Below are positions 10,372-30,616 of a stretch of DNA of 36,074 nucleotides, piece by piece. Every line of letters begins with the position of its first letter. The stretch's first letter is position 1. This DNA is from an uncultured Lachnospiraceae bacterium (GTDB taxonomy: Bacteria; Bacillota; Clostridia; Christensenellales; UBA1242), in contig CAZTNT010000001.1 of assembly GCA_964614965.1 (NCBI GenBank), positions 1 to 36,074 of the forward strand, in the 5' to 3' direction. Both the position numbers and the translations under genes were made by a program. Under the pieces are notes generated by a model. It saw only the letters and a list, made by a program, of their open reading frames with translations. It ran no database searches and was not told the DNA's origin.

Positions 10372-10581
10372 TTATAAAATAACTTCATAATCTGATTCTG
10401 GTTGTTTGTTTTGCCAATAATCAATTTCTTTTTCCAGCCGTTCTATTTGGTCTTGTTTAGATTTCAGTTTGTTGTTTGTTTTGATTATATTACAAAGTTG
10501 AAAAACAATCACAGTAAGTAAAGTGACAACAATTAACAATGCTAATATAATTAAAAATTTAACTTTTCTTGGAGAGTTCAT
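10372..10581 (-). CDS. Small bitopic coiled-coil protein, DivIC/FtsL/FtsB-like septum formation initiator
   Basis: 69 aa with one TM (FLIILALLIVVTLLTVIVF) followed by a short coiled coil (KLKSKQDQIERLEKEIDYWQNK). Its position directly after the yabP/yabQ-like genes mirrors Bacillus yabP-yabQ-divIC. Confidence 0.5.
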   Translation of the reverse strand: MNSPRKVKFLIILALLIVVTLLTVIVFQLCNIIKTNNKLKSKQDQIERLEKEIDYWQNKQPESDYEVIL

Positions 10582-10951
10582 TTAATCCCTTTTTGTGTTG
10601 TTTTATAAATCTCTTTTTTAAGAATTCATGTTTCTGTTTACAAACATTATACCACTTTCTTTCCAAAATAACAAGTGTTTTTTTAAAAAGAGTTTTTGCC
10701 CAAAGATAAGCGAGCAAAAAGAATATGAGAAGAGTTAAACTGAATTTTCCAAAATTGAAAAAATTTATCAAAAACACAAAAAATATACTTAAAAATGCGT
10801 AAAAAATACTTAAAAATAAAGATTTAATATATTTTTTTTGAAAATTTATTGCAAATAAAACTGAAAAAACATTTGAGATAAATCCCAAAATTATTCCGCC
10901 TAAAACGAAAATAAGTAAACAATTTAATTGATTTTGAGTTGAAAAAATCAT
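10559..10951 (-). CDS. Small polytopic membrane protein in the YabQ position (spore cortex protein YabQ-like)
   Basis: 130 aa with 3-4 TM helices. ATGA overlap with the yabP-like gene upstream and a 23-nt overlap with the divIC-like gene downstream. Assigned mainly by position. Confidence 0.45.
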   Translation of the reverse strand: MIFSTQNQLNCLLIFVLGGIILGFISNVFSVLFAINFQKKYIKSLFLSIFYAFLSIFFVFLINFFNFGKFSLTLLIFFLLAYLWAKTLFKKTLVILERKWYNVCKQKHEFLKKRFIKQHKKGLNELSKKS

Positions 10952-11229
10952 TTAAAAATTTTCCTAAAAAGAGGTTGTTTTTCTTTTGACTCAACAAATT
11001 TTAATGAATCAATGTTCCCAGAAATTTCAGCACGAGTTGATGAATTATCCAGTTTTACCAACTCCAGTTCGCTTCCATTAATAACAAGACAACCGTAGAC
11101 TGTGTCTAGTTGAACGAGGTCTGGTTTTAAACTTAGGATTTTCTTTGTTCCAGAAATTGATAGATTCTTTTTGTTGCTTAAAACAATAAGTTGCTCTTTG
11201 TCAGTTTTATTTTCTTTAATAATTTCCAT
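10948..11229 (-). CDS. yabP: Sporulation protein YabP
   Basis: 93 aa. LSISGTKKILSLKPDLVQLDTVYGCLVINGSELELVKLDNSSTRAEISGNIDSLKF...PLFRKIFK aligns by eye with B. subtilis YabP (L.ITGV..V.SFD.E...LET..G.L.I.G..L....L......V.I.G.I..L.Y....GFFSKLFK, from memory). AAGGAAG SD. Confidence 0.75.
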   Translation of the reverse strand: MEIIKENKTDKEQLIVLSNKKNLSISGTKKILSLKPDLVQLDTVYGCLVINGSELELVKLDNSSTRAEISGNIDSLKFVESKEKQPLFRKIFK

Positions 11230-11303
11230 TTTAAATACTTCCTTTTATTAATTTATAATTTAAAAAAATTAAATATGAATATTTACTAAAATTATTTTTT
11301 TGT

Positions 11304-11333
11304 TTGACAAATTGATTGGGCTTTTTATATAAT
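11304..11333 (+). promoter_or_regulatory. Sigma-A-type promoter of the giant gene
   Basis: TTGACA (11304-11309), 18-nt spacer, TATAAT (11328-11333). A leader of about 58 nt follows, with a GGGGA SD at 11389-11393. Confidence 0.5.
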
Positions 11334-11398
11334 AAATTTAATAATTAATTTTAAAATATTTTAATGCGTTTAGGACAAATTATTATTAGGGGAAAAAG

Positions 11399-14300
11399 AT
11401 GAAGAAGTTTTATAGTTTTGCATTGATTATATTGTCGCTGTTCTCGTGCGTTGTTTTTTCTGCATGCGGAAATAAATATAAAAATCTGAAAATGAATATT
11501 TTCTCAAATGAAGGTGAAATGTTAACGGTGGCCGAGTTTGTGATTGATTCTTCAAAAGGTTCTACCAAAACGTTTTGTGTTGAATTTTTAGGAATAGATA
11601 AAGATGATATAGGTGAAATTGTTGTTTCATCTCTTCCTCAAGAGTTAATAACTGTTACAAATTATTCTTATTCTGGAAACCGTTGTTATGTTGATATTAC
11701 TCCAAACATGTCGAGTGGTAGTGATGCAAAATTGGTTGTTTCACATTTAAATTCTGGGAAAAAGAAATCAATTAATTTGTCAATTGATAAAAAAGCTGAA
11801 AACTTAAATTTAGTTTCAAATTCGTATGCTATTGCACTTCCTCAAACTGAAACAGTAAATCATGTCGTTGATTTTTCACAAATTGTGAATTTGTCGCCAA
11901 GTGGAAGTACTGACAAAATTTATTTCAAACTTGCTGATGGGAGCACTTTAGAAAATCATATTAAACCAATCAACTTGACTGATGTTGAAGGATATGAAGA
12001 TGTGTTGACTGGTTTTGAAGTTTCTGTTGGTAAGGATTTTGAGGTTGACATATATCCTGTAACCTATATGAAGGGGTACATCAGAGGAGAAACAGATCCT
12101 TACATCAATAAGAAAATCAAAATTTACTTTAAAAATGCTTTATCAAACGATAACGTTAAAATAAAAGATGATATTTCAAGTTTAAACTTAATTGCAAATG
12201 ATGAATCATTAAATTTGTTTAAAGTAACCTTGTTGAATCAAAATGACGAATTGTTGATGCAAACAGATTGTGTTAATTTCTACAATCTTAACCATGAAAC
12301 ATCTGAGCAACTTAAAGTTTCAACATTTATAGATTCAAACAAAGATGTAATTATTAAAGCAAACACTCACACAGACGACTATGTGGATGTTAAAATTATT
12401 CTAAGTCCTAAAATGCCAGGGAATTTGCCAACTGTTGAAAAAATAATTAAAGTTAAAGGTGAATCAAAGGCTGACACAATTTATGTGGAAAAATTCCAAC
12501 AAGAGGTTGAAGATTTTAATAATGTAAATATTTTTGATTACTATGATGATGGTGGAAATTCATTGGGAGCACTATTTACATTTAAACCTTCAACAAACAA
12601 TGGCTCTGAAGTTCACGAAGAGTTGAAATCAATGCAGATTGTAATTGATCCAGCGATTTTATATATAGAGAATTGCACGCCAGTTCCATCTGGTGTTTCT
12701 GTTGACAGTACACTTTTCTCGTTAACTTTCAACCATATTAGTTTAATCCCAAATGATCCATTTAAAGAAGCAGATTTGTTAAAATTTACTTATAAAGATG
12801 GGAAAATGGTGTCGGAGGAAATTGGTGTTAACAGTCGTGTTTACATAAAATATATAAAACATGCTTCTGGTGATGGAAGATATGAACCATCAAGTTTTGG
12901 AATTGATGTTGTAACATTGAATAAGTCTGAAAATGAATTTTGGAAAAATTTGGAACAAACAAAAATTTCTTTAAATTTCAACAGAATGGAAGGCGTTGCG
13001 AAAGCAACTTTGCAGGCAGGTGAATATTATTATCAAAACAACTTCATGTATCCAAAAGTGGGTGCTGTTTCTGCTCCTGAATATATATATCTTGACAGAC
13101 TTAAGGGTTTGAACAACACAACAGCAAACAGAACGTTTGTTAGCATAATAAACGAGTCAGTTGAAAGTCGTGATGGTGGAAAAATTGCAACAACCGACTT
13201 CACTGTTACAGTTGAACCTCTTCAAGAAGTTGAGAATCCGTTAAAAATTGCTTTTGGAAGTATTAATAAAGACGACCTTGGAAACATTGGTAACAACGAA
13301 AAAGGTGTTGATAAAATAGTTTATAAGTATGATAGCAAGCTCGAAACAGATATTGTGAGTTTGGTGTTCAGAAACAACACAAGTTTGGGAGATTATAAAA
13401 TAACTTTTTATCAAGAAAACATTGAAAAAGTTAGTTTGATATGTAGAGTATATGAAAATTTAAATGGAATTAATGAAAGTTATATTGAAATTGAAACAAA
13501 CGCAAAAGCATTTAAAAATGTTAATTACATTGAACAATATCAGTCACAATATATCGTTGCAAGTGGTCAAAGTTTGAATCTTTCAATCAATTTGCCACAA
13601 GCTGTTTTAAATTCAAACATTGTTGTTGGCTATGATTTAACTCAATATGAAATTAAAGACTCTTTGATTGAAACTATAGACGAAGACCCTGTTGAGCCAG
13701 GAATTGATGAAGAACCAATCAATGTGAAAGATTATTTTGATGTTAAACATGACCATGATATGTTAAGCACAGCAGTTTTAGATTTCAAAAAAGGAACTTA
13801 CATTAAAGATAAACCGCAATACGTTTGTTTAACTATTGTTGTGGGAACTAAAATTTATTCAGATATAACTCAAGAATCTTCAGAGATAGATTACAGCAAC
13901 ATAATAACTTTAACATTCTTTATTTATGAAGAGATTGAAAATAAGGATGCTTCAATTAATCACACAAGCATGACAAGATATATGACAGACTGTGTTGGTG
14001 TTTATTATGAAGATTTAACTAAAGCCGACTTGAAAATCACAATGGCAGATGAATTGTGGAATTATGTTACTTTAATTGATTCGAAGCAAATTAAATGGAG
14101 CCAAAATTGGAGTGAGGCACCTATTGGAAAGGTAGAAAATAATGATGAACATTCATGCGCGATAACCTTTAATTATTCTGGAGTTGATTCAAAATACGAA
14201 GTTGAAATTAGTGCATTTATTCAACAATTTGATAATTTGTTTGAGTATAAATGTGTGTTCTTGGTGGAAAAACCAATTTTAACTCAAAAACTTTTGATCA

Positions 14301-17300
14301 AAAGTGATGTATATGAATCAGATGGTGAATTATACATTGATTTGAAAAAAGGTGACACTTATCAAGTTGAAGCAACAAATTATTCAAAATTGGGTGATGT
14401 CACTTTTGATGATATCATAATTCAAGTTGCAGCCGAAGATGGACAAGCTTTAAAGGCTTATGATTATTTCGAAATTGACCGAACAAACTCAAAAATAAAA
14501 GTAAAAGATGTGAATAGTGCTTATAATTTCACTTTGATTGTGTTTACAAAAGATGTTTTAAGTGAAAGAATTGAATCAACCATGTCTGGGTATGAAAATC
14601 CTTCCAGTTTCATTAAAAAGTTCGATTACGACAATAATAATTATTCAAATGCTTTTGTTAAAATTGCAATAAATTTATTTGATGGAAGTGTTTCTAGACC
14701 TATTCCAATTCATACATATGAGGATTTTTTGAATATTAATAAAGCTACTGAATTGCATTATGTTTTAAAGAACAACATTAATTTAAGCAATGGTTTTACA
14801 CCAATTGAAAATTTCACAGGATCACTTAAATCTTTTGGAAATGAAACATTCACAATTGATGGAATAACCCTTGATGGAACCAATGTTAACTTATTTAAAG
14901 ATTTCAAAGGGGAAATTGATAATATTAAATTTGGTGTTCAATATGCTTATGACATGAAGTCTAGTGCAAATGAAGTTTACTTAGGTTTATTTAACAAAAA
15001 TGCTGGAACACTTGAAAATGTTAAAGTTCAAATGTCTGGTTCTGCACAGTTGAAAGGCTCTGCAACCTATATCTTTGGAGGATTAGTTGGAGATAACCAT
15101 AATATAATTACATATTCAAGTGGATATGGAGTGGCAGGTAAGATAAGCATAACTGGAGAACAATCTACAACAGTATATTTTGGAGGATTGGTTGGTAGAA
15201 ACATTAATTTAATTAAAGGTTATGAAACTTCAAACAATCAAGGTGGAACAAATTCAATTACTATCGGTACAAACGGTGGGGTATCTCATGCAATTTCAAT
15301 GATTGAAGCAACAGAAACCACTCTTTATGGCGAAAGTTCAATTGGTGGAGTTGTTGGCTTAAACACATATGATGGTTCTAGCGTTGGAACCATAAAAAAC
15401 ATGTTTGTTAAAGCAAACATTGATGCCAATGCTTCAAATGTTGGTGGTGTGATTGGAACAAACAAGCAACAAGGAACTGTGAGTGTGGAAATTTCAAGCA
15501 ATATTCCAGTTAATTTTGATTCTGTTTTAACATCTCAAAACACTAAGGCAATCTACAATGTAAAATCTGCTTCAACAATCAATGCAAACAACAATGTTGG
15601 TGGAATTGTTGGAAATGATGAAAATGGTGTTTATGTTGAATGTGATTATCAAATTTTAAATACCACAAAGAATTCTATATGTGCGAATTCAAATGTCGGC
15701 GGAATTGCTGGATTCTCAAAATATGGTAAATTTGCTTATTGTTCAGTGATGAACTATAATTTGGATTATGAAGAATTAAATGTTGAAGACAAAACAGATT
15801 TAGTTATATCCATTAATTCTAATGCGGATATTTCGGGTGCTGACTATGTTGGTGGAATTGTTGGAAAAGCAGAAAGTTCAACTGACCCGATGTCATCTAC
15901 TGAAAAAAGATATGATAGAGTTATTGTGCTTTATTCAAGTGTTAATGCATACCTTAAAGCAACAAAAACTGATAACAACATTGGTGGAATTTTAACACAA
16001 GATGGAACAAAAACAGCAGACGATGGTCCGAACTTGCTTTTATATGGTGTTTACTTTATTGGTAAACTTGATGGAAATGTTGTTTATTATAATAAAACAA
16101 CAACAAATAACGGTGTACCAACAACTCATTACTTTGCTTTAGATAATGGATATGCATTGTTTGATCAATCATATTCAATTAACATTGAAGAAAATGTTAT
16201 TCGTTGTGGTTCAATGTCTGGAAATCAATTAATGACTAATTGGTTTGAGAATTTAAGCGATGATGATTATTCTCAACTTGCACTCTATTGGGGATGGTTA
16301 AAAAATGTTAATGGAGGTCACATTTTTATAACCACAACTCAAGAGGCAAACTCAGATTCACTTCCAATTTTTGATTTAGCTCCAGAAAGCATCACAGCAA
16401 CTGTTGTGAAACCAAAAGCAACAGGACTTGAAAAGGTTTTAATGCTGGATTATTATGATTTCTCATTGAACAGCATTTCAAATGAAGATTTGGAAAAATT
16501 AAATGAAAGTTATAATCGTAATCAATATATAATCGATCATATTGCTGGCAATGGAAATAGAACAGCTGGGTTGCTCAACATAACTGCAAAACCTGAAAAA
16601 ATTGGAAATGTTGTTGTGAGTGTTAGATCAACAGACCCATCTGTAATTGATATTAATTTTGATGGAAGAATAATTATCAACGGCGTTGGTGAATGTGAAT
16701 TAATTTTCAGTTCAATTTTGAATACAGAAGCAGAAGCAAGAATCAAGGTTGTTGTTGATTATCCGATTGGAGATCAATTCAATATAACAAAATATCCTAA
16801 TGATGAAGGAAGAATTGTTTCAGGAACAGAGAAAATTGCCCAAGGCACAACAAAACAATACTATGTTTTAACAAGTGGTTCTAAAACAATAAACCAAAAA
16901 TCAAATGAAAAAACTTATTCTTATATAACAAAAACAAATGTTTGGTTAGATATTGCAATTGAATGTAATGACGTTATAATTGAGGATTATGTTCAAATTA
17001 GTGGAAAAACAGCAACTTCAGTTGATTCAAAATTATCCATTAAATTGGATGACAAAACTCCATTCACAATTTCAGTTTTGAAAATGTTGGAAGATGATCA
17101 ATTTACGTTTACAATCAAACCATTTGTTGTGGTTGATGATATAGAAGTTTATCTTGAAACAGTAGACAATCAGGAAGCTAGCACAACTTTCAACTTGTCA
17201 ACTTTAAAGGGTGTTACAGGGGTATCGTTTAGTTATGATGATGCGATTGTTTATCCAAACGACACTGTTTACTTAACTATGCAACTTCAAACTGATGATC

Positions 17301-20300
17301 CACTTTGTCCTGACACAACAACTTCTTCTGCTAATGGAGATGTGCAAATTAGAATTGACGTCTTGAAAAACGTGATAAGTAACTTGTTAAATTTAGACCC
17401 TGACACTCAAAATTTATATAATTTGTCTTTAATGCTCAACAATAATCCAAATGTGAAATGTGCTATAAATGTTGACCGTTCGAGTTATAACAAAAACACT
17501 CAAATTCAAACAATAGTTTTGAGAATTGAATTTGAAGATATGAATCTTGAAGAACCTGAAAATATGAAAATTACATTGTCAACATTAGAAGATGATGCTT
17601 ATGCTCAAGTTAATTTCAAAATAATTCCTCAAAGAATTAATAAAATTGAAGTTAAAAACTATTATTATCGCTTAGATGATAACCAAGAAAAAGTTTTAGA
17701 ATTATATGATGTATTAAAACCGAATGATTTCGGTTTGATGATCATTGACCTTGTTCCAAACAATGCATATTATGATTATCTTGAAATTAGCGATATAACC
17801 GGAAATGAAGAAATTGTTTTCATTCAAATTGATGGTGATGGAAAAGCTTATAACCTTCAAGATGTTTCAAGTGATGGAAAAGGAATTAAATTATATAACT
17901 ACAATTCATCAAGACTTTATGTTAGAACTCAAATAAGCAACACATATTCTTCAAAACTTCACACAATTGAAATTCGTGCTTATGCTTCAGACAGAACACA
18001 GTTGGGGGATTCTTACAGGAAACAAATTGATGTTAGAATGCTTCCTCAAATTGACATTAAATATCTTAAACCGGATGGTAGTGTTGGTGCAAGCCTAAAT
18101 TCAACAGATAATGAAACCAGCAAAGATGGATTATACCTTGCAACTGGTGTGGATGCAATTTTCACAATCACAACTCAAAATGCGGATGAAATTATTGTCA
18201 GCAAAGATGGCTCAAGTGCTGGTGATTATGAAATTGAAAAGATTACAGAAACACAGTATAGATTAAAAGCAACAAATAAAGTTGACATTGGAAACAAAAT
18301 AACACTTAAAGTGAAAGCAATTTCTGAAATCAATGCTAACGACACTGATGAAACTGAATGTTCAATCACTTTCACAATTGTTGATTTTGTGATTCATGGT
18401 GTGAGCGTTAACAGTAGCATTAACAACTTAACAACAAAAGAAATCTATGGATATTACAATAGAGACGTTAAATTAAATTTCTATTTTAGCAAAACAGACG
18501 TAAGTTACTACGATTCCTCATCAACAGGTGAGAAGTTCTGGGACACTGAATACAATTATGGTGATGCATATGATGAAACAGATGATAATTTAGTTAAAAT
18601 CTATTCAATTTTGCAAGCTTTGAATGGATATGATTCGGCTGGCAACCTTCAAGAAACAAACGACTACTTAATATTAAATAAAAATAAGAAAGAAACAAGT
18701 GGACAGTATGATGAAGACGAAATACTTAATCAAGGACAAGTTAGTGGGCAAAAAGTTCAACTTTATCAAAACGTGTTAACCGTTCAAGAAGGATATGATA
18801 AAGAAACAGTTGAAAAAGATGGTAAAGAAGTAGAAGTTGATTCTCCTAAATATTTAGCAGTTGCGTTTAAATTAAATTATGATAAAGAAGCACCTACACC
18901 GTCTTGGGAATTGGCAACATTAAATTCTAGCATTGATAGAGGTGTTGTTGACTACAGCTATATTGTTGATGTTAACTTTAAACTTAATTTTATGAATGTA
19001 ACGCAATGGGATAATCCTGAGGTTGTCAACAATGTTGAAGATTTCTATAACATGGAATCAGGAAAGCAATATATTTTGAACACCGATTTAACGCTTGAAA
19101 ATCACACTCCAATTGATGCGGATTTAGTTTACTTTGATGGAAATGGTCACACAATCACAATTCATAGTTTCTCAACGTTTGAAGGAACTCAAATGAATGC
19201 GGGATTGTTTGCACAAGTTTACCCTAACATGATTGTTAAAAATGTTAATGTGAAATATGTTAGCATGAATGTGAATGGTAACTACACCTTCGGTCTTGTT
19301 AAAGGTAAATCAAATGGTTCATATGAAGTTGAATATGCTGATTTATCTCAAGGTTCAGCAGCTTTAACAAATGCAAACTTTGGTGGTGTTTGTGCAGTTA
19401 ACAAGGGTATTATAACTAATTGTTATGTCTCAGGATTGATTGCTGTTACAGCTTCTGCTCTTGGAACAAGTGAAGCAATGAATCTCGGTGGTTTGGTGGC
19501 GGAAAATTCATCAACAGGTTACATAACAAACTCTCACAGCGAATTGAATATGTTTGCATTGGCAAATATTGGTGGATTTGTTAATTCAAATAATGGAAAA
19601 ATTGCTTCGTGTGGAGTGGAAGAAAACGCAACAATTTATGGTTATCAACCGAACTTGGAAAACACAATCACAGCTCAATTTGCAGGATTTGTTGTTCAAA
19701 ATGCTGGCGAAATTTCAATGAGTTATGTAAACTTAAATGCATCAAGAATTGAAATTGGTTATGCAAAAAAGAACATGGTAAACAATGAAATTGAGAACGA
19801 TTATTTACGCTTAGAAATAAATGGTGGTAAGATGTCTGTGAAAGACAGCTCTGCAGGATTTGTTTATTCAAATTCAGGAAATATCTATGATGCGTATGTT
19901 CAAATGACGGAAATTGGTGTTAACAATAACTATTTTGCAGGATTTGTTTATTCAAATTCAGGAAATATCAACAGGGCATATACTTATCTCAATGAAGGTA
20001 AAATTGACATTTCTAACACATTTATGTTTGCACCTTCAAAAACATCTGGAATTGAAAATAGTGTTGAATTTATGTCTTCAACATCTTCAAGTTATAATAA
20101 TGGAATTGATGGATTGGAAACAAAACCAATAGCAATTAGGTATTCACGATCTTTCTTTGAGACTTTAGGTTTTGCTTTTGGTGATAATGAGAGTGCTGTT
20201 TGGCAAACTTCGGCAGGTAATGCGCCAAAACTTGTTTCAGCAAAACGCCTGGAGTTTAAAGCGCTTACAATTAATTATGTTCCAGACAATGATGTTTCAG

Positions 20301-22093
20301 ATGGTGTTGACAATTCTCGTTATGTACCTGATTATGGAACATATGGCACAAAAGAAAATCCATTCATAATCCATGATTTAACAACTTGGAATCGTTATTT
20401 TGATTATGACTTAAACAAGGGTATCATGACAGGATATTATCGAATTGTTAAAGATATTGACTTTGCTTCAGTTGGTAAAAACCCATCAACAAGTGAATTG
20501 ATTTTCCAAGGAAATATTCAAGGGAATAATATGCAACTCATGAATATGATGCTCTATTCAAATGAAGGTTTAGATTCATTGGGATTATTCAAAAAATTGC
20601 AAGGTGTGAGCGATAGTTCAATCCAAAATGCTGTTAGAAATTTACAAATTTCAGCAACATCAGTTTGGGCAAGTTCAACTAAATCGGTTGGAATACTTGC
20701 TGGCATCATTGAAAACTTTAACATCTATAATTTAACTATTGATTCTGAAGGCGTTATCATGGTTGGTAAAAATGCTGTTGGTGGTGTTGCGGGTGTTGTT
20801 AGAGGTGAATTTGATATGGATCAAATTTCATCAAACATCGGAGCAAACAGCACACGAGCTTCAACTTTGAATAGTTATTCAATTTATATGTCAGAAAACA
20901 ACAGCAAAAATGCTTCAGAAAATTTAAGCAATGTTTATTATGCTGGGGCTGTTGCGGGAATTTTAGACGGTTATTCAACAAGAAAGATTTATAACATTAA
21001 TGATGAAAGAAATTTGCAATCTGATTACTACAAAGTTAGAAACGTTAATGTGAGTGGGGCAGTAACAGTCGCTGGAGATACAATTGGTGGAGCTTTTGGT
21101 TTTGTTGGAGAAAGTGTTCTGGTGGATTCAGTTAATGTTAACATCACTGGTTCATTGTTCGGTTCACAATATTCAGCAGGAATTGTTGGAGAAAATAGAG
21201 GTGTTTTGAAAAATGCGAAAGTTGTTTTGCAAAACGGAATTTTCACCAATGCAAAAAATGTTCATGCTGGTGCAGTTGGATTGAATATAGGTGGACTTGT
21301 AAGCGATGTCAGCGCTCAAGCATTTATTGAAAAGAACAATTATGGATATGTTGTTGCTGGAATTGTTGGAAGGAATATTAACGGAGTTGTAACAAAAGTC
21401 TATTTCGATGGAGAGTTGTATGGTTATATCACTGGTGGAATTATTGGAACAGACTATGATTATAAAATTTACGAAAGTTTGACATCTGGTAGAAATTCCC
21501 TTAATGTTGAATGCAGAGATAATTTTAAAAACATTGTTCCTGAAAACACAGTTATGTATTCCGATGATTATAAACATTTACAAGAAGTTTCTATAGGTGG
21601 AGAAACATTGAATTGGATGATTAACAATTCAAATAGATTCTATGGCTATCAAAAACTTTCTTCAGGAGCAGAAGCAAATTTAACCAACTACACAGTTGAA
21701 AGCAAAGTCTTAGGACTTGTTGTTGGATTGAGTTATGATAATTCAGTTGCTCCAATTGGAGGAATTTATAAAGATATAAAAGAAACAAAAATTATCTTTA
21801 ATGGTCCAATAGATTCAACCGATGATAAAATGGATATAACAAGCGTAACTGTAAATGATAATAATGATGACATGATTACTACATATAACTTTAATGTATA
21901 TGGAAATATCGAACTAGAACTTAAAGAAGGAACAACATTCAATTTTGTTTCTCAAACGGGCGATATAAGTTATGTAATGTATTTATTGGGTTCTACAGTT
22001 GCATCATTTGATTCTTGGTCTACTTATGATGGCGAATATTTGATTTTTGGAACTTATACTCAAGAATCAATTCAAACTGAGCCTGAAAATTAA
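11399..22093 (+). CDS. Giant (3,564 aa) surface lipoprotein with three GLUG-like parallel beta-helix modules and an Ig-like (Big_2-like) domain
   Basis: Uninterrupted 10,695-nt ORF. The signal peptide has lipobox-like LFSC (Cys17) / FSAC (Cys23). There are three modules at about nt 14694-16100, 19008-20250 and 20338-21470. Each opens with P-x-x-I-x-x-x-E/W-D/N-F, then Y-x-L-x-x-D/N-I/L-x-L/F, then F-x-G-x-x-x-G-N-G/N-x-x-I/L (FDGNGHTITI in module 2). A train of G-G-[ILV]-[VA]-G / AGFV motifs follows. A Big_2-like segment lies at about 16390-16760 (GNVVVSVRSTDPSVIDINFDGRIIINGVGECELIFSS). Confidence 0.9.
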   Translation: MKKFYSFALIILSLFSCVVFSACGNKYKNLKMNIFSNEGEMLTVAEFVIDSSKGSTKTFCVEFLGIDKDDIGEIVVSSLPQELITVTNYSYSGNRCYVDITPNMSSGSDAKLVVSHLNSGKKKSINLSIDKKAENLNLVSNSYAIALPQTETVNHVVDFSQIVNLSPSGSTDKIYFKLADGSTLENHIKPINLTDVEGYEDVLTGFEVSVGKDFEVDIYPVTYMKGYIRGETDPYINKKIKIYFKNALSNDNVKIKDDISSLNLIANDESLNLFKVTLLNQNDELLMQTDCVNFYNLNHETSEQLKVSTFIDSNKDVIIKANTHTDDYVDVKIILSPKMPGNLPTVEKIIKVKGESKADTIYVEKFQQEVEDFNNVNIFDYYDDGGNSLGALFTFKPSTNNGSEVHEELKSMQIVIDPAILYIENCTPVPSGVSVDSTLFSLTFNHISLIPNDPFKEADLLKFTYKDGKMVSEEIGVNSRVYIKYIKHASGDGRYEPSSFGIDVVTLNKSENEFWKNLEQTKISLNFNRMEGVAKATLQAGEYYYQNNFMYPKVGAVSAPEYIYLDRLKGLNNTTANRTFVSIINESVESRDGGKIATTDFTVTVEPLQEVENPLKIAFGSINKDDLGNIGNNEKGVDKIVYKYDSKLETDIVSLVFRNNTSLGDYKITFYQENIEKVSLICRVYENLNGINESYIEIETNAKAFKNVNYIEQYQSQYIVASGQSLNLSINLPQAVLNSNIVVGYDLTQYEIKDSLIETIDEDPVEPGIDEEPINVKDYFDVKHDHDMLSTAVLDFKKGTYIKDKPQYVCLTIVVGTKIYSDITQESSEIDYSNIITLTFFIYEEIENKDASINHTSMTRYMTDCVGVYYEDLTKADLKITMADELWNYVTLIDSKQIKWSQNWSEAPIGKVENNDEHSCAITFNYSGVDSKYEVEISAFIQQFDNLFEYKCVFLVEKPILTQKLLIKSDVYESDGELYIDLKKGDTYQVEATNYSKLGDVTFDDIIIQVAAEDGQALKAYDYFEIDRTNSKIKVKDVNSAYNFTLIVFTKDVLSERIESTMSGYENPSSFIKKFDYDNNNYSNAFVKIAINLFDGSVSRPIPIHTYEDFLNINKATELHYVLKNNINLSNGFTPIENFTGSLKSFGNETFTIDGITLDGTNVNLFKDFKGEIDNIKFGVQYAYDMKSSANEVYLGLFNKNAGTLENVKVQMSGSAQLKGSATYIFGGLVGDNHNIITYSSGYGVAGKISITGEQSTTVYFGGLVGRNINLIKGYETSNNQGGTNSITIGTNGGVSHAISMIEATETTLYGESSIGGVVGLNTYDGSSVGTIKNMFVKANIDANASNVGGVIGTNKQQGTVSVEISSNIPVNFDSVLTSQNTKAIYNVKSASTINANNNVGGIVGNDENGVYVECDYQILNTTKNSICANSNVGGIAGFSKYGKFAYCSVMNYNLDYEELNVEDKTDLVISINSNADISGADYVGGIVGKAESSTDPMSSTEKRYDRVIVLYSSVNAYLKATKTDNNIGGILTQDGTKTADDGPNLLLYGVYFIGKLDGNVVYYNKTTTNNGVPTTHYFALDNGYALFDQSYSINIEENVIRCGSMSGNQLMTNWFENLSDDDYSQLALYWGWLKNVNGGHIFITTTQEANSDSLPIFDLAPESITATVVKPKATGLEKVLMLDYYDFSLNSISNEDLEKLNESYNRNQYIIDHIAGNGNRTAGLLNITAKPEKIGNVVVSVRSTDPSVIDINFDGRIIINGVGECELIFSSILNTEAEARIKVVVDYPIGDQFNITKYPNDEGRIVSGTEKIAQGTTKQYYVLTSGSKTINQKSNEKTYSYITKTNVWLDIAIECNDVIIEDYVQISGKTATSVDSKLSIKLDDKTPFTISVLKMLEDDQFTFTIKPFVVVDDIEVYLETVDNQEASTTFNLSTLKGVTGVSFSYDDAIVYPNDTVYLTMQLQTDDPLCPDTTTSSANGDVQIRIDVLKNVISNLLNLDPDTQNLYNLSLMLNNNPNVKCAINVDRSSYNKNTQIQTIVLRIEFEDMNLEEPENMKITLSTLEDDAYAQVNFKIIPQRINKIEVKNYYYRLDDNQEKVLELYDVLKPNDFGLMIIDLVPNNAYYDYLEISDITGNEEIVFIQIDGDGKAYNLQDVSSDGKGIKLYNYNSSRLYVRTQISNTYSSKLHTIEIRAYASDRTQLGDSYRKQIDVRMLPQIDIKYLKPDGSVGASLNSTDNETSKDGLYLATGVDAIFTITTQNADEIIVSKDGSSAGDYEIEKITETQYRLKATNKVDIGNKITLKVKAISEINANDTDETECSITFTIVDFVIHGVSVNSSINNLTTKEIYGYYNRDVKLNFYFSKTDVSYYDSSSTGEKFWDTEYNYGDAYDETDDNLVKIYSILQALNGYDSAGNLQETNDYLILNKNKKETSGQYDEDEILNQGQVSGQKVQLYQNVLTVQEGYDKETVEKDGKEVEVDSPKYLAVAFKLNYDKEAPTPSWELATLNSSIDRGVVDYSYIVDVNFKLNFMNVTQWDNPEVVNNVEDFYNMESGKQYILNTDLTLENHTPIDADLVYFDGNGHTITIHSFSTFEGTQMNAGLFAQVYPNMIVKNVNVKYVSMNVNGNYTFGLVKGKSNGSYEVEYADLSQGSAALTNANFGGVCAVNKGIITNCYVSGLIAVTASALGTSEAMNLGGLVAENSSTGYITNSHSELNMFALANIGGFVNSNNGKIASCGVEENATIYGYQPNLENTITAQFAGFVVQNAGEISMSYVNLNASRIEIGYAKKNMVNNEIENDYLRLEINGGKMSVKDSSAGFVYSNSGNIYDAYVQMTEIGVNNNYFAGFVYSNSGNINRAYTYLNEGKIDISNTFMFAPSKTSGIENSVEFMSSTSSSYNNGIDGLETKPIAIRYSRSFFETLGFAFGDNESAVWQTSAGNAPKLVSAKRLEFKALTINYVPDNDVSDGVDNSRYVPDYGTYGTKENPFIIHDLTTWNRYFDYDLNKGIMTGYYRIVKDIDFASVGKNPSTSELIFQGNIQGNNMQLMNMMLYSNEGLDSLGLFKKLQGVSDSSIQNAVRNLQISATSVWASSTKSVGILAGIIENFNIYNLTIDSEGVIMVGKNAVGGVAGVVRGEFDMDQISSNIGANSTRASTLNSYSIYMSENNSKNASENLSNVYYAGAVAGILDGYSTRKIYNINDERNLQSDYYKVRNVNVSGAVTVAGDTIGGAFGFVGESVLVDSVNVNITGSLFGSQYSAGIVGENRGVLKNAKVVLQNGIFTNAKNVHAGAVGLNIGGLVSDVSAQAFIEKNNYGYVVAGIVGRNINGVVTKVYFDGELYGYITGGIIGTDYDYKIYESLTSGRNSLNVECRDNFKNIVPENTVMYSDDYKHLQEVSIGGETLNWMINNSNRFYGYQKLSSGAEANLTNYTVESKVLGLVVGLSYDNSVAPIGGIYKDIKETKIIFNGPIDSTDDKMDITSVTVNDNNDDMITTYNFNVYGNIELELKEGTTFNFVSQTGDISYVMYLLGSTVASFDSWSTYDGEYLIFGTYTQESIQTEPEN

Positions 22094-22100
22094 TAAACAC

Positions 22101-22128
22101 TTGACAAATTTCATATTTAAATTAAAAT
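22101..22128 (+). promoter_or_regulatory. Sigma-A-type promoter positioned for a leaderless queH transcript
   Basis: TTGACA (22101-22106), 16-nt spacer, TAAAAT (22123-22128), 6 nt (attagt), ATG at 22135. No SD. Confidence 0.45.
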
Positions 22129-22134
22129 ATTAGT

Positions 22135-22716
22135 ATGAAAATTGATTACAACAAAATAATGCAAGAAGAAATAAGTAGTTTTGGTGAAAAGCCAAAACTA
22201 CTTTTGCATTGTTGTTGTGCACCTTGTTCAAGTGCTGTGATTGAGAGAATTAAAGAGTTTTTTGATATTACCTTTTACTATTACAATCCAAACATATTCC
22301 CGCAAGAAGAATATGTTTTGCGTCAAAGTGAATTTAAAAAATTGGGTGTTAAAGTGGTGGCGGAACAATATAACCATGAAGAATTCTTAAGGGTTATAAA
22401 AGGTAAAGAAAACGAAAAAGAAGGTGGAATTCGTTGTCAAATTTGCATCGCTGAAAGATTGGATAAAACTTTTCAGTATGCTATTGAAAATGGTTATGAT
22501 GTTGTCACAACAACTCTTTCGATTAGTCCACATAAAGATTGTGAATTTATAAATCAACTTGGTGAAAGACTGCAAGATAAGTATGGAGTTAAATATCTTC
22601 ATGCAGATTTCAAGAAGCAAAATGGCTATTTAAGAAGCATTCAAATCTGCAAAGAACTTGGAATTTATCGTCAAGATTATTGTGGCTGTGAATTTTCAAT
22701 TGAAAAGAAAAATTAG
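22135..22716 (+). CDS. queH: Epoxyqueuosine reductase QueH (DUF208 family)
   Basis: 193 aa. LLLHCCCAPCSS, YYYNPNIFP..EY, ISPHKD and the C-terminal YRQDYCGCEFS are the signature Cys/His motifs of QueH. Confidence 0.85.
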   Translation: MKIDYNKIMQEEISSFGEKPKLLLHCCCAPCSSAVIERIKEFFDITFYYYNPNIFPQEEYVLRQSEFKKLGVKVVAEQYNHEEFLRVIKGKENEKEGGIRCQICIAERLDKTFQYAIENGYDVVTTTLSISPHKDCEFINQLGERLQDKYGVKYLHADFKKQNGYLRSIQICKELGIYRQDYCGCEFSIEKKN

Positions 22717-22735
22717 TTTTAGCATATATAAACAT

Positions 22736-23752
22736 ATGTTAAACAAAAAGATTATATATAGAAATAATTTAATAAATAATATAAAGCAAGTCAAAAAAGA
22801 AAATCCAAATTCAAAAATTTGTGCAATGGTAAAGTCAAATGCTTATGGTGTGGGCGATAAGATTGTTGTTCAAACGCTTGAATCTTTTGTGGATTTTTGG
22901 GGAGTGGCTTGCTTTTTTGAGGCAAAGCGAATTTCAAGTTTAACTAAAAGACCTATTTTAATTGTTGGAGCATGTGGGAAAGATGAAGTTGATGAAAGAT
23001 TTTCATATTCATGCTTTGATTTGGAACAACTTGAATTTTTGATTTCATTAAACAAAAAAATAAATATTCATTTAAAGATTAACACTGGTATGAATAGATT
23101 TGGATTTAAAAACTTAAAAGATTTAAAGAAAGCATTAAAAATGATTTTAAATAGCAGGTTGAATCTTGAAGGAATTTTCACACATTTTGCCACAAACGAT
23201 GAATTTACACAACATCAAATGAATGAGTTTAAAAAATTTGTTCAGCTAACGCACACATTTGGGTTAAATCCAATTGTGCATGCAGATAATAGTTTTGTTA
23301 ACGAACAACAAAATCATCAATTAGATATGGTTAGAATTGGTTTTAGTTTATATAACAGATGTGATGGTTGGTTTTTGCCAGCAATAGAAATAAAAAGCAC
23401 AGTTGTTCAAATTCAAGATGTTAAAAAGAACGAATTGATAGGTTATAATTATAGGTGCGTGGCAAAAAGCAATATGAAAGTTGCGATAATGCCTTTAGGT
23501 TATGCTGATGGATTTGATATGAAATTTTTGGGAATAGAAATTAATATCAATGGAATTAAATGTAAAGTTTTAAACATATGTATGGATTGTTTTATGCTTG
23601 ATGTAACAAAAACTAACTTTAAAAAAGGGGATGAAATCTATTTGTTAAATAAATTTAATCCCCTGAAAGCTTATGCTGATTATGCAGAGACCTCAGTTTA
23701 TGAAGTTATGACTAAATTTTCTCATATGAGAGCAGAGAAAATTTTAATTTAA
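22736..23752 (+). CDS. alr: Alanine racemase
   Basis: 338 aa from the ATG at 22736. ICAMVKSNAYGVG contains the PLP-lysine motif (VKANAYGHG consensus). FTHFA and GYADG motifs are present. The track ORF starts at a TTG (22658) inside queH, which I reject. Confidence 0.85.
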   Translation: MLNKKIIYRNNLINNIKQVKKENPNSKICAMVKSNAYGVGDKIVVQTLESFVDFWGVACFFEAKRISSLTKRPILIVGACGKDEVDERFSYSCFDLEQLEFLISLNKKINIHLKINTGMNRFGFKNLKDLKKALKMILNSRLNLEGIFTHFATNDEFTQHQMNEFKKFVQLTHTFGLNPIVHADNSFVNEQQNHQLDMVRIGFSLYNRCDGWFLPAIEIKSTVVQIQDVKKNELIGYNYRCVAKSNMKVAIMPLGYADGFDMKFLGIEININGIKCKVLNICMDCFMLDVTKTNFKKGDEIYLLNKFNPLKAYADYAETSVYEVMTKFSHMRAEKILI

Positions 23753-24712: not shown

Positions 24713-24805
24713 AACAATGTAGATTAATGTCAAATGAAACAAATTATTGGTGAAAATTTGTGGCTTTGGCAACAAAATCATTTTGTGATATTAAGGGGTA
24801 TTTTT

Positions 24806-27229
24806 ATGGTCAACGTTTTTAAATATGTGGACAAGTTCTTCACATCATTGACAAATTATCTAACGTACAACTATATTTTTATTATCTTTATTGGATTATT
24901 TTTGTTCACTGCTTTATGTGTGATTTTTTTCACATCTCGTTCTTATGAAGCAAGATTAATAAAAGCAATTGATAAATTTAATGTTTATTTTATTGATAAT
25001 CCGCATATTAACGAGGAAAATTTGGTTGCGTTTAACGCAAAAATGAAGTCAAGAAAAGTTCCAAAGCAATTGAGAAAGAGTTGGCAACAATTCGTGCTTT
25101 ATCGTGAAGGAAAAGCAAGTTCTTATATGTCTTTTGAAAATTGCGTTGCAAATCCAATCAAAAACAGCACTTACACTCGTGATTTGAAAACAATGAATTC
25201 TTTTGCTTGGATTTTCAGCATATCTTCAATGATTTTAAATGCATATTATTGCTATGAAGTAGGCGATTTGGCTTCAATCTTGCAAAGCATTTTGCTCACT
25301 CCAGTTCTTATCCTATTATTGAATTACATAGTTCAAATTTTCTTAAATTTAAGACACAGCGCAATTGTTAGTGATTTATTCCAAAATTATCAATATTTTG
25401 AAGTTAACATTGACAAAGCAACTGAAACATTACCTGATTATGTTGATTATGAAGTTTTGTTTGACAAAAATGAAATTAAAAAAGGTATTCCAATTCTTTA
25501 TGCGTATCTTCAAAAACGTGCAGAAGAGGAACAACGAGAATTGGAAAGAGCTCGACTTAGAAACGTTGAACACGAAAAATTCAATTTTGATGATCAAGGG
25601 GTGGCTGCCTCTTTGGTTCTTGAAAGAGCGATGCAAGAAGCTGAAAACTATATTGCAGAACGTAAAAAATATAACCAAAACATTGGTCAAATTAACTCAG
25701 ATATCACTCAAGAAGATATGAATTATCGTGAAATCACGAAAGAATATAACCGTCAAATGCAAGTCAGCAAGGAAACATTTGAAAACTTCAAATCTCAATT
25801 GCAAGATGTTTCTTCTTCAATTGAAGCAAACTATTTAAAGAAGCAACAACAACAAGAATTGGATCGTCAACGTAATTTGGAACGTGACTTTGACACTGCA
25901 ACTGAAAGACATAAAAAAGTTATCGATGATTATCATGCAGAGCTTGATACTGTTGACAAATTTATTGCAACAAGTAGAAAAAATCTTGAAGATGCAATGA
26001 AGAGTGAGTTTAGTTCTTACAGTAGCAAAGTCTATGATGAAGCAAAGAAACTCGTTGAAGAAAGAGAAAAAGAAAAGATTGCTCAATTGAAGCAAGAAAT
26101 TGAAAATTTGGAAGAAGCTATTGTTGCAAAAAATCAAGAACTCGACAATGTTTATCAACAAAATCAAATTATGAGTGATAAACTTGAAGAGATTGGAATT
26201 GCTGTTAATGAACAACCGGGATATTCATCTTCATTTAAGCCAACAGAAACTGAACAACCTAAACAAGAACAACCAACATTTGAACCTTTAAAAGCAGAAC
26301 CTGTTGTAAATGAAGAACCAGAAGATGAAGAACCTCCAGTTGCTGAAATCAAACCAGAGTTCGTTGAACCTGTGGAAGAAACTCAAGCAGAAATAGAAGA
26401 AACTCCAGAAGAAACGGAAGAGGTTCAAGAAGAATTGGCGGAGCAAGAAACTGTTCAACCTGAAAACATTGAAAAAACTGAATATCTTTCTATAGAAGAA
26501 ATGATAGAACAATTAAAAGAAGAACAAGCAAATGAAGAAGCAACAGAAGAATTAAAAGAAGAAGATCAATTTTTTGATTTCGATGAGGAACTTCCATATG
26601 AACAATTAAATGCTGAAGATTTAAAACAAATCTCCACCGAATCAATTGATGATAGCATTGAAACAAAGCCAGTGTCAAAAAGGGGTAGACCAAGAAAGGT
26701 CGTTGATATGGCTCAAACTCAAGGGGAAAAGAAAAAGAGAGGTCGTCCAAGAAAAGAAAAGGTTGATGTTCAAGAACAACCAAAACGTAAAGTTGGTAGA
26801 CCTAAAAAATCAGAAAGCGTTGTTGAAACACAAGGATTATCAACTGAACCAAAACATGGAAGGGGAAGACCTAAAAAGCAAGTTGCTCAAGTCGAGGAAA
26901 AGGTTAAACTTGGTGTTGGTAGACCCAAAAAGGTTTCAACAGAAGAAGTGAAAACAGCTCCAGTAAAAAAAGGTCGTGGTCGTCCAAGAAAAGTTGTTGT
27001 AGAACAACCTGAGGTATCTCAAGTTAAGAGGGGTCGTGGTCGTCCAAGAAAAACTGAGCAAGAACAGGTTTCTAGCATTGCAAACGAAAAGGTTGAGAAT
27101 TTGTCAGACATCAAGGAAATTGATGAATATTTAAAAGAAATTGACAATCAAATTGCAGCTGAAAATGCAAAACTTGAAGAAACTCAAAGAGAACTTGCAA
27201 AAAAAGCTAAATTAAGAGCAAAAAAATAA
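24806..27229 (+). CDS. Membrane-anchored coiled-coil protein with an acidic E/P-rich spacer and seven C-terminal AT-hook (RGRP) motifs
   Basis: 807 aa from the ATG at 24806 (AAGGGG SD at 24793-24798). The upstream ATG at 24734 has no SD. It has three hydrophobic TM segments in the first ~200 aa, a charged heptad-like region, and an E/P-rich acidic region (nt ~26200-26650). Seven hooks follow at nt 26678-27052: KRGRPRK, KRGRPRK, KVGRPKK, GRGRPKK, GVGRPKK, GRGRPRK, GRGRPRK. It ends in a short coiled coil. Confidence 0.8.
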   Translation: MVNVFKYVDKFFTSLTNYLTYNYIFIIFIGLFLFTALCVIFFTSRSYEARLIKAIDKFNVYFIDNPHINEENLVAFNAKMKSRKVPKQLRKSWQQFVLYREGKASSYMSFENCVANPIKNSTYTRDLKTMNSFAWIFSISSMILNAYYCYEVGDLASILQSILLTPVLILLLNYIVQIFLNLRHSAIVSDLFQNYQYFEVNIDKATETLPDYVDYEVLFDKNEIKKGIPILYAYLQKRAEEEQRELERARLRNVEHEKFNFDDQGVAASLVLERAMQEAENYIAERKKYNQNIGQINSDITQEDMNYREITKEYNRQMQVSKETFENFKSQLQDVSSSIEANYLKKQQQQELDRQRNLERDFDTATERHKKVIDDYHAELDTVDKFIATSRKNLEDAMKSEFSSYSSKVYDEAKKLVEEREKEKIAQLKQEIENLEEAIVAKNQELDNVYQQNQIMSDKLEEIGIAVNEQPGYSSSFKPTETEQPKQEQPTFEPLKAEPVVNEEPEDEEPPVAEIKPEFVEPVEETQAEIEETPEETEEVQEELAEQETVQPENIEKTEYLSIEEMIEQLKEEQANEEATEELKEEDQFFDFDEELPYEQLNAEDLKQISTESIDDSIETKPVSKRGRPRKVVDMAQTQGEKKKRGRPRKEKVDVQEQPKRKVGRPKKSESVVETQGLSTEPKHGRGRPKKQVAQVEEKVKLGVGRPKKVSTEEVKTAPVKKGRGRPRKVVVEQPEVSQVKRGRGRPRKTEQEQVSSIANEKVENLSDIKEIDEYLKEIDNQIAAENAKLEETQRELAKKAKLRAKK

Positions 27230-29880: not shown

Positions 29881-29955
29881 GCCTCGATAGCTCAATGGTG
29901 GAGCAACCGGCTGTTAACCGGTAGGCTACAGGTTCGAGCCCTGTTCGGGGCGCCA
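29881..29955 (+). tRNA. tRNA-Asn (anticodon GTT), CCA encoded
   Basis: Acceptor stem GCCTCGA / TCGGGGC (one G-U pair). D-arm TAGCTCAATGGTGGAGCA. Anticodon stem-loop ACCGG-CTGTTAA-CCGGT. T-arm ACAGGTTCGAGCCCTGT. Discriminator G and CCA at 29953-29955. Confidence 0.9.
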
Positions 29956-29963
29956 GAAAATCA

Positions 29964-29987
29964 CTCAGGAGAAATCCTGAGTTTTTT
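29964..29987 (+). terminator. Rho-independent terminator after tRNA-Asn
   Basis: CTCAGGA (29965-29971), GAAA-type loop, TCCTGAG (29975-29981), then TTTTTT (29982-29987). Confidence 0.7.
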
Positions 29988-30000
29988 AATGATTAATTAA

Positions 30001-30062
30001 GAGTGAATAATGAAGAATTGTGGAAAGTTTGAAGTGATTTTCTAATTCTTCATTTTTCATTC
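30001..30062. repeat. Long imperfect inverted repeat (19-bp arms, 24-nt loop) between the tRNA and the four-helix-bundle gene
   Basis: GAGTGAATAATGAAGAATT (30001-30019) pairs with AATTCTTCATTTTTCATTC (30044-30062), with one mismatch and one G-U pair. Confidence 0.6.
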
Positions 30063-30072
30063 TTCATTAAAT

Positions 30073-30101
30073 TTGACAAAATCAAACAAATGTGTTAAAA
30101 T
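30073..30101 (+). promoter_or_regulatory. Consensus sigma-A promoter positioned for a near-leaderless four-helix-bundle gene transcript
   Basis: TTGACA (30073-30078), 17-nt spacer, TGtTAAAAT (30093-30101), 9 nt, ATG at 30111. No SD. Confidence 0.5.
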
Positions 30102-30110
30102 AAAAATACT

Positions 30111-30449
30111 ATGAAAGAAAATTTATTAATTTCAAAATCTAAAGATTTTGCATTAAAAATTATTGCACTATGCAAAAATATTAAAAATCAAGGAAGTTTA
30201 ACAAATCAACTACTTCGTTCAGCAACTAGCATAGGTGCAAACATTCACGAAGCAAATTATGCTCAAAGCAAAGCAGATTTTGTAAGTAAATTGCAAATTG
30301 CTTTAAAAGAGTGTTATGAAAGTGAATATTGGATTGATTTGCTAATTTCAGCAAATATAATAGGAGAAGAAAATAAAAATTTATTAGATGATTGTATTGA
30401 AATAAAAAAGATTTTAATCAAATCTTGCAAAACTGCAAAAGGTGAATAA
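30111..30449 (+). CDS. Four-helix-bundle protein (23S rRNA intervening-sequence protein / Avd-like family)
   Basis: 112 aa. QLLRSATSIGANIHEANYAQSKADFVSKLQIALKECYESEYWIDLL matches the family signature (R.A.SI.ANI.EG....S..DF..KL.IA.KE..ET.YWL.LL). Confidence 0.8.
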   Translation: MKENLLISKSKDFALKIIALCKNIKNQGSLTNQLLRSATSIGANIHEANYAQSKADFVSKLQIALKECYESEYWIDLLISANIIGEENKNLLDDCIEIKKILIKSCKTAKGE

Positions 30450-30470
30450 TTGCTTCAGTTCGTCAAATCG

Positions 30471-30500: not shown

Positions 30501-30533
30501 ATTTCCTACAATAATTCATAAATATTTTAAACT

Positions 30534-30559: not shown

Positions 30560-30616
30560 ATACAACTATTGATTTTTTATTTTGTGTATGGTATAATTAA
30601 ATTAAGAGGTAAAAAA

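Follow-up and report, generated by a model that had tools for sequence, protein, structure and literature searches.

How, and from whom, do the bacteria of the GTDB family UBA1242 obtain their metabolites? These bacteria are widespread in animal guts, and one giant gene bears on the question. The gene lies in a stretch of 36,074 nucleotides (hereafter the window; GenBank assembly GCA_964614965.1, contig CAZTNT010000001.1, positions 1 to 36,074 of the forward strand) from an uncultured Lachnospiraceae bacterium of this family, with about 30% G+C. Its product of 3,564 residues carries a lipoprotein signal, three beta-helix modules of the GLUG type and two large orphan regions. By analogy with better-characterised surface proteins, we consider it probable, at roughly 60%, that the protein is an N-terminally lipid-anchored, adhesin-like fibre, which would present its beta-helices as binding modules for attachment to a partner bacterium or to a gut surface.

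The closest named relatives of the giant protein come from Candidatus Onthoplasma (NCBI order Christensenellales). Candidatus Onthoplasma belongs to the GTDB family UBA1242, and its metagenome-assembled genomes (MAGs) measure 0.79-0.92 Mb (PMC12306168). The same study reported that UBA1242 lacks pathways to synthesise amino acids, nucleotides and lipids, several glycolytic enzymes (upper glycolysis), ATP synthase and standard transporters, including those for sugars, that it unexpectedly retains sporulation genes, and that its members are probably obligate symbionts or parasites (PMC12306168). In broiler chickens, UBA1242 rises with age and belongs to the taxa that showed a negative association with body weight (PMC13155120). 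If the genome measures 0.8-0.9 Mb, the giant gene would take up about 1.2-1.35% of it, and it is probably among the costliest genes carried by these cells. The window also contains the wall and teichoic-acid genes alr, murJ-like and ltaS-like, which point to an envelope of the Gram-positive type. With these genes, yabP and its G+C content, it fits the published account of the lineage, to which orthology and synteny suggest that it belongs.

Is the giant gene a genuine and intact gene? The following features describe its reading frame and start:

11399-22093, forward strand: giant open reading frame (ORF), 3,564 codons plus stop; its translation is identical to the database protein P0022
11304-11333, forward strand: sigma-70-type promoter-like site, TTGACA-18 nt-TATAAT, agreeing at 12 of 12 consensus positions (a consensus match only)
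11388-11392, forward strand: Shine-Dalgarno-like AGGGG, 6 nt before the ATG, read from the sequence

A preliminary description of the window had proposed a single uninterrupted ORF filling about 30% of it, with its own near-consensus promoter and a strong Shine-Dalgarno sequence. The ORF indeed contains no internal stop on the forward strand and occupies, with 10.7 kb, 29.6% of the window. The predicted promoter even matches the full consensus, and it was both the best and the sole 12/12 site in an 11.9-kb scan (10900-22800). Weaker promoter-like matches were no commoner than in shuffled sequence (66 observed against 62 expected), so only this top site deserves attention. The AGGGG is present but should be graded as moderate rather than strong, one of its five pairs being a G-U wobble. 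Within the gene we found neither DNA tandem repeats nor homopolymers of at least 8 nt; a misassembly by repeat collapse is therefore unlikely, and phase variation was rejected on the same grounds. Paralogy of the giant ORF with the other large ORF of the window (30569-35095) was likewise tested and rejected.

How would such a protein be held at the cell surface? Its N-terminus contains the following element:

11399-11467, forward strand: signal peptide and lipobox, residues 1-23 (V-F-S-A-C23), a PROSITE-type lipobox pattern match

The N-terminus MKKFYSFALIILSLFSCVVFSA-C23-G fits the PROSITE-type lipobox (MKK...VFSA-C23; PS51257-type, within the first ~35 residues). The lipobox Cys is kept in 53 of the 54 full-length family members described below and the full pattern in 50 of them, in agreement with the lipoprotein signal claimed previously; the members without the pattern look like proteins with mis-called starts. 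In an alignment of 13 sequences, M1, K2, F20, A22 and C23 are invariant. We infer that Cys23 would be lipidated and that the N-terminus would be the only tether. Neither lgt nor lspA was found in a search that covered the window only.

Other means of surface attachment were looked for in the giant protein. No LPXTG (LP.[TSA]G) motif and no hydrophobic segment other than the signal peptide were found, and SLH, LysM, choline-binding and CWB2 domains gave no Pfam match in scans of the full length or of segments; the absence of LPXTG, choline-binding, SLH and LysM anchors had been noted before and holds. The full-length protein yielded zero matches in Pfam and NCBIfam. Membership among LPXTG adhesins or SRRPs was rejected for want of LP.[TSA]G and of any hydrophobic window past the signal peptide. 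The suggestion that the protein is protease-like did not survive, as HEXXH occurs nowhere in it and the same Pfam scans revealed no peptidase domain. Assignment to the M26 IgA1-specific metalloendopeptidases fell with it, because neither HEXXH nor an M26 Pfam match was found in the full-length or segment scans. Membership in a defence system was searched with PADLOC, which gave no match.

The giant protein is not the only lipobox protein of the window, because a 408-aa ORF at 132-1358 on the forward strand starts with a lipoprotein-like N-terminus (…VFLSTSC). This second protein contains a HELMH motif, has no Pfam or NCBIfam match and may, judging from these motifs, be an orphan metalloprotease lipoprotein.

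What, then, would the lipid anchor present? The preliminary description had claimed three non-identical beta-helix modules of GLUG-like character, which we delimit as follows:

14681-16198, forward strand: beta-helix module 1, residues ~1095-1600, with seven GG[ILV][VA]G turns and a Pfam Glug match
19001-20293, forward strand: beta-helix module 2, residues ~2535-2965, with the entry motif FDGNGHTITI and a C-terminal cap ...AVWQ..G..PKLVS
20351-21613, forward strand: beta-helix module 3, residues ~2985-3405, with the highest conservation in the protein (0.54-0.67 over 54 sequences)

Module 1 passes the Pfam Glug model (PF07581) with two stretches when residues 1080-1600 are scanned as a segment (24.7 bits against a gathering threshold of 20.5, E=2.7e-5). 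Full-length scans detected Glug at E<0.01 in 4 of 13 family members. Module 2 stays below the Glug threshold (E=0.83-1.3, 10-11 bits), and module 3 of the window copy gave no Glug match. The orthologous module 3 in the related locus L003, however, passes the model with 21.3 bits. Moreover, hhalign comparison of family profiles related module 1 to module 2 with 97.6% (E=3e-12), module 1 to module 3 with 98.4% (E=7e-15) and module 2 to module 3 with 94.4%. The likeness escapes single sequences: self-BLAST produced no off-diagonal match, and pairwise BLAST and phmmer remained marginal. Finally, modules 2-3 matched the GLUG protein P0019 by BLASTP with E=1e-16 over ~590 columns, covering two tandem modules in an alignment that runs through the exit cap and the linker into the following entry motif. 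P0019 itself contains seven matched GLUG stretches (Pfam E=6e-50) in addition to Peptidase_M26_N. On the basis of the profile comparisons, the P0019 alignment and the score of module 3 from L003, we place all three modules in the GLUG-type beta-helix superfamily. The GLUG nature claimed earlier thus stands directly for module 1 and through relatives for modules 2 and 3, whose copies of the motif have drifted beyond the reach of the Pfam model.

Structure prediction agreed with this assignment. The AlphaFold2 model of residues 2365-3564 has a mean predicted local distance difference test score (pLDDT) of 73.9. Its modules 2 and 3 are all-beta with short strands; the blocks of module 2 are mostly at pLDDT 80-97 and those of module 3 mostly at 85-96, so that most blocks of modules 2-3 exceed 90. 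The model of module 1 is moderately confident (residues 1100-1240). Together with the hhalign values of 94-98%, the models of modules 2-3 support the claim of three non-identical beta-helices. In Foldseek searches with modules 2-3, the top four PDB entries were the IgA1 proteases 7uvk, 6xja, 7uvl and 7jgj from Gemella and Streptococcus pneumoniae, with probabilities of 0.96-1.0. The next matches, namely tailspikes, Ag43, SRRP and lyases, were all well-known right-handed beta-helix proteins, and in the viral library BFVD, EsV-1-160 (E=3e-11) scored best together with a 'putative IgA1 protease' from a phage. The homology to the IgA1-protease beta-helix suggests that the beta-helices of the giant protein are right-handed. 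The FDGNG of the entry motif (2579-2583) is invariant in 13 homologues.

The modules are set among sequences that resemble nothing else, for which the relevant segments are:

11468-14680, forward strand: N-terminal family-specific region, residues 24-1094, modelled as all-beta and probably a chain of beta-sandwiches
16199-18988, forward strand: middle family-specific region, residues 1601-2530, beta-rich, with two word-index homologues
16466-16768, forward strand: segment earlier called Big_2-like, residues ~1690-1790, with a model pLDDT below 50
17630-17998, forward strand: most conserved segment outside the beta-helices, residues ~2078-2200, conservation 0.52-0.61 over 54 sequences
21614-22090, forward strand: C-terminal tail, residues 3406-3564, with a conserved SFDSW...Y..[ILV] motif near the end

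Residues 24-1094 were without a match in Pfam, NCBIfam and the PDB sequences, also when orthologue profiles (25-560 and 540-1100) were used, and an exhaustive profile search confined them to this giant family. For residues 1601-2530 there was no Pfam match and no meaningful PDB profile match (1650-2060 and 2060-2530), just as PDB sequence searches with the full protein and with a profile of residues 2365-3564 returned nothing meaningful. The regions previously said to match nothing therefore amount to ~2,000 residues. The Big_2-like domain proposed between modules 1 and 2 was not recovered: PF02368 gave no match at E<=10 in residues 1650-2060 of the window protein and five orthologues. Outside the beta-helices no tandem repeat is recognisable, and an all-versus-all hhalign of 110-aa windows yielded one weak 22-column match. 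Residues 600-1799 were modelled from an alignment of five sequences with a pLDDT of 52. In this low-confidence model, residues 600-1090 are all-beta, and Foldseek retrieved cadherin- or Ig-like arrays, a SusE-like protein and S-layer domains of Bacillus anthracis Sap, a hint that residues 24-1094 might consist of tandem beta-sandwiches.

Residues 2078-2200 differ from the rest of the orphan sequence in their conservation. With the pattern PQRINKIE...LEISDITG.EE..F.Q...SSDGKGIKL...H and many invariant residues, they are as conserved as the beta-helices, have no Pfam or PDB sequence match and, from their conservation, may form a functional domain of ~120 residues. The C-terminal tail is the opposite extreme, namely the least conserved part of the protein (0.14-0.38), with a pLDDT below 50 for its last ~120 residues. 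About half of the family, including the window protein, ends 11-28 residues past the SFDSW motif, and the other half adds 100-250 residues in which no domain was recognised. One member, P0072 (4,027 aa, L009:122-12205, at the same syntenic position), has a C-terminal extension of 495 residues, of which 3783-3883 match Pfam Transglut_core (E=5.5e-12). This transglutaminase-like core, found in 1 of 13 members scanned with Pfam, suggests that the free C-terminus is able to take an effector-type domain.

These findings allow us to weigh whether the giant might be a surface-tethered enzyme, either a beta-helix lyase or hydrolase or a protein with a hydrolase hidden in its orphan regions, that degrades glycans or the wall of its host or partner. 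The Foldseek list for modules 2-3 does include fucoidan lyase, PL6 alginate lyase, GH28, GH49, GH55 and phage tailspike depolymerases, and several charged residues in the modules are near-invariant (D2563, D2580, D3019, D3190, E3238, E3265 and R3267). These enzymes, however, reached probabilities of ~0.16 or less, far below those of the IgA1-protease beta-helix, and Pfam, NCBIfam and PDB sequence searches gave no match to a lyase, hydrolase or peptidase family. The same two results led us to reject, from sequence and predicted fold, membership among the pectate-lyase-like or tailspike enzymes. Furthermore, E3265 and R3267 are part of GENRG, one of the recurring turns of the GG[ILV]VG-N-G type. 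The ~2,000 residues of unrecognised fold and the transglutaminase-like core of P0072, which has a cysteine-protease fold, speak for a catalytic role, but that core is restricted to a single scanned member. Harvesting glycans would also have no obvious use in UBA1242, which lacks sugar transporters and upper glycolysis (PMC12306168). Altogether, we regard an enzymatic function as improbable.

How widespread is the gene, and is it kept intact? A word-index homologue search with three pieces of the protein returned 2-17 relatives each, among them a few fragmentary ones from 'Clostridia bacterium' MAGs, and missed the family. An exhaustive profile search with residues 25-1100 retrieved 100 cluster representatives, of which 54 are full-length relatives of 3,374-4,027 aa that are 30-50% identical to the window protein and collinear with it from end to end. 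Among species-representative genomes, intact orthologous ORFs of 3,560, 3,440, 3,552 and 3,495 aa occur in four Candidatus Onthoplasma sp. MAGs, and a MAG from an uncultured member of the Clostridia has one of 3,721 aa. Nine related loci were examined in total, and seven of them contain a complete ORF.

The preliminary description had raised the worry that the gene is an assembly artefact or a decaying pseudogene, to which the two split MAG copies would lend some colour. In L002, the orthologue is broken into three ORFs, but the two breaks are runs of N at 10-N scaffold gaps. In L001, an ENA scaffold, there is one reading-frame change at L001:14617-14635 without an N-gap, which may reflect either a local misassembly or a true disruption in that strain. 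Against decay or misassembly stand the intact ORFs of 3,440-3,721 aa in five independent genomes, the 54 collinear full-length representatives and the absence of DNA repeats and long homopolymers from the gene, so that this explanation can be practically dismissed. Because of the conservation across the family, the intact orthologues and the fixed synteny, the giant gene is real, intact and under selection. This selection must be strong, because the gene is found intact, full-length and at the same place in every examined member of a streamlined lineage.

The fixed place of the gene is defined by its neighbours:

10948-11229, reverse strand: yabP, the left-hand neighbour, divergent; Pfam YabP E=3.7e-13; synteny in L001, L003, L005, L007 and L008
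22135-22716, forward strand: queH, the right-hand neighbour; Pfam QueH E=7e-63; synteny in L002-L009
22101-22128: promoter-like site of queH, an 11/12 consensus match

In every locus examined, the giant gene has a divergent yabP-yabQ-divIC-like operon on one side and queH-alr on the other, even in the most distant full-length member with 29% identity. Since queH and then alr always follow downstream, a polymorphic toxin or contact-dependent inhibition locus was rejected; no toxin domain was found in the giant family, except for the transglutaminase-like core in one member.

Does the conserved yabP side make the giant a sporulation or spore-surface protein? The divergent neighbour and the sporulation genes kept in UBA1242 (PMC12306168) would fit such a role. 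The giant, however, diverges from that operon with a site of its own, which is a perfect match to the vegetative sigma-70/SigA consensus, and no spore-coat or exosporium domains were found in it. Its right-hand neighbours queH and alr are housekeeping genes. We consider a spore function very unlikely. As an observation in its own right, the operon of yabP, yabQ-like and divIC-like genes at 10372-11229 on the reverse strand independently confirms that sporulation genes are kept in this genome-reduced lineage.

The rates of divergence are informative about the location of the protein. The giant is 39-58% identical to its orthologues, against mostly 65-87% for the flanking housekeeping proteins, and such faster divergence is the usual pattern for exposed surface proteins. 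Within the gene, modules 2-3 evolve slowest and the C-terminal tail fastest.

An exposed protein could also be a structural component of the envelope, namely a scaffold, wall-spanning or similar to an S-layer, that gives the surface its shape or protection instead of binding a foreign ligand. This would account for a strictly single-copy, syntenic core gene of conserved length, and also for the beta-helices being the most conserved part, as expected for self-assembly or for binding to the cell's own wall. The Sap S-layer domains among the Foldseek matches and the neighbouring wall and teichoic-acid genes alr, murJ-like and ltaS-like point in the same direction. Yet the Sap match derives from the weak 600-1799 model, and the wall genes are in separate transcription units with their own orientation. 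Neither SLH, CWB2 nor any other wall-binding or self-assembly domain was found in the giant, which moreover evolves faster than its neighbours. A scaffold thus appears to us an unlikely account.

We favour, as stated at the outset, an adhesin-like fibre, which could work as follows. After Sec export, lipidation at Cys23 would hold the N-terminus in the outer leaflet of the cell membrane. Residues 24-1094, as a chain of beta-sandwiches, would build a stalk through and beyond the Gram-positive-type wall. The beta-helix modules, above all the tandem pair 2-3 near the free C-terminal end, would expose long, flat faces able to bind a ligand carried by another cell, host mucus or epithelium, and the variable C-terminal tail, with extra domains in half of the family, would make up the distal tip. 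The fibre would thereby serve as an attachment device for the partner-dependent life of a lineage poor in biosynthesis and standard transporters. Binding by such folds is known: in the IgA1 protease, the beta-helix folds on its own, moves as a rigid body and attaches to the Fab of IgA1 (PMC7695701), and the beta-solenoids of Limosilactobacillus reuteri SRRP and Apilactobacillus kunkeei Giant1-4 bind glycans or epithelia and sit on long rods (PMC12863079). The adhesin role gains weight because the gene belongs to the syntenic core of a lineage that has a reduced genome and probably depends on partners. As this lineage is predicted to depend on other cells, attachment is the most economical function.

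Three points weigh against the adhesin. The tips of adhesins are often their most variable parts, whereas conservation of the giant is highest in the beta-helix modules; this conservation, much of which falls on Gly, Asn and the hydrophobic positions of the ladder, may have structural reasons. The proposed stalk of residues 24-1094 rests on a structure with a pLDDT of 52. Lastly, the partner-dependent lifestyle of UBA1242 is itself a prediction from MAGs.

A more specific version of the attachment fibre is possible, and we offer it tentatively. The protein might be a fibre dedicated to UBA1242, possibly more than 100 nm long, that tethers a transporter-poor but still sporulating Clostridium with a genome below 1 Mb to a partner or a gut surface. 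Its orphan regions, including residues 2078-2200, might have undescribed folds or a function in ligand recognition or uptake.

What would be gained from the giant protein? A giant adhesin as such would be unsurprising, and its value lies in opening to direct tests the way of life of a gut lineage that is abundant but uncultured. The protein could be used as an antigen or bait for enrichment and imaging and for a test of partner dependence, and its gene as a lineage marker. It also adds ~2,000 conserved residues without known fold and a case of GLUG beta-helices without any protease domain. Sources that name any family member use 'hypothetical protein' only. Our literature searches found no paper on this giant family and no relevant one on GLUG and beta-helix; the family appears to be undescribed as a whole. 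Two things are new here: a single protein that unites a lipid anchor with three GLUG beta-helices and two large orphan regions, and a giant protein as a syntenic core gene of a genome-reduced lineage.

Other genes of the window deserve brief mention. An 831-aa protein encoded at 24734-27229 on the forward strand starts with membrane segments, continues with a long coiled-coil and acidic region and ends in some eight GRGRPRK AT-hook repeats (Pfam AT_hook E=2.9e-12). From these features it looks like a membrane-anchored DNA-binding protein, and its conservation in the lineage is seen from counterparts of 907 aa in L002 and 805 aa in L008, which are encoded at the same position. Further downstream, a tRNA-Asn (29881-29955) is followed by a gene for a four-helix-bundle '23S rRNA IVP' protein (30111-30449) and by the 1,508-aa ORF at 30569-35095, which has weak SMC/JetC-like coiled-coil matches only. 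No counterparts of 30111-30449 and 30569-35095 were found by tblastn in L001-L007, of which only L002 extends past the ltaS-like gene and carries different genes there. The stretch 29881-35095 may be an island inserted at the tRNA.

How does the giant protein compare with known systems? The best structural match of modules 2-3 is the N-terminal beta-helix of the M26 IgA1 metalloproteases (S. pneumoniae ZmpA/IgA1P and Gemella haemolysans IgA1P; 6xja, 7jgj, 7uvk and 7uvl), a compact protein-binding domain with few protrusions. In contrast to these proteases, the giant lacks the M26 catalytic middle and C-terminal domains, HEXXH, G5 domains and LPXTG, and it has three beta-helices instead of one as well as an N-terminal lipid anchor. 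By analogy, it would correspond to the binding part only; it does not belong to the protease family.

Comparable, too, are the GLUG giant surface proteins (PF07581; P0019, P0020, NCBI 'GLUG motif-containing protein', Planctomycetota), whose modules are arranged in tandem as in the giant. P0019 and P0020 share with it the entry motif F.GN..GNGHTI, the exit caps W....G.P.L and the GG[ILV]xG-N-G turns. Unlike theirs, the motifs of the giant are too diverged for a full-length Pfam scan, its modules are set in ~2,000 family-only residues, and it forms a single syntenic orthologue group in one lineage.

In size and design, the giant recalls A. kunkeei Giant1-5 and L. reuteri SRRP (5ny0), which comprise 3,000-8,000 aa, take a large share of a small genome and carry a beta-solenoid on a long rod (PMC12863079). 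SRRP 5ny0 appeared in the Foldseek list for modules 2-3 as a weak match at rank 19, and no sequence relationship of the window protein to the Giants or SRRP was detected. Those adhesins consist of an N-terminal beta-solenoid, an alpha-helical or Ser-rich rod and a C-terminal anchor (SH3b or LPXTG), whereas the window protein has the reversed order, with an N-terminal lipid anchor, beta-rich spacers and three beta-helices toward the C-terminus. Its polarity is thus the mirror image of the one seen in LPXTG adhesins.

Giant proteins at the surface of partner-dependent microbes with reduced genomes also include the nanohaloarchaeal SPEARE proteins. With the giant proteins of Omnitrophota, the window protein shares a very large surface protein, a small genome and a predicted attached life, a likeness of lifestyle only (bioRxiv 10.1101/2023.11.21.568195). 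The giants of Omnitrophota contain numerous transmembrane regions along with SecA-like domains and beta-helices of the antiparallel kind, in contrast to the single lipid anchor and the GLUG-type beta-helices of the window protein, which shows no homology to them. If the UBA1242 giant is indeed a dedicated attachment fibre, it would represent among Firmicutes what giant surface proteins are in the episymbiotic Patescibacteria, DPANN and Omnitrophota.

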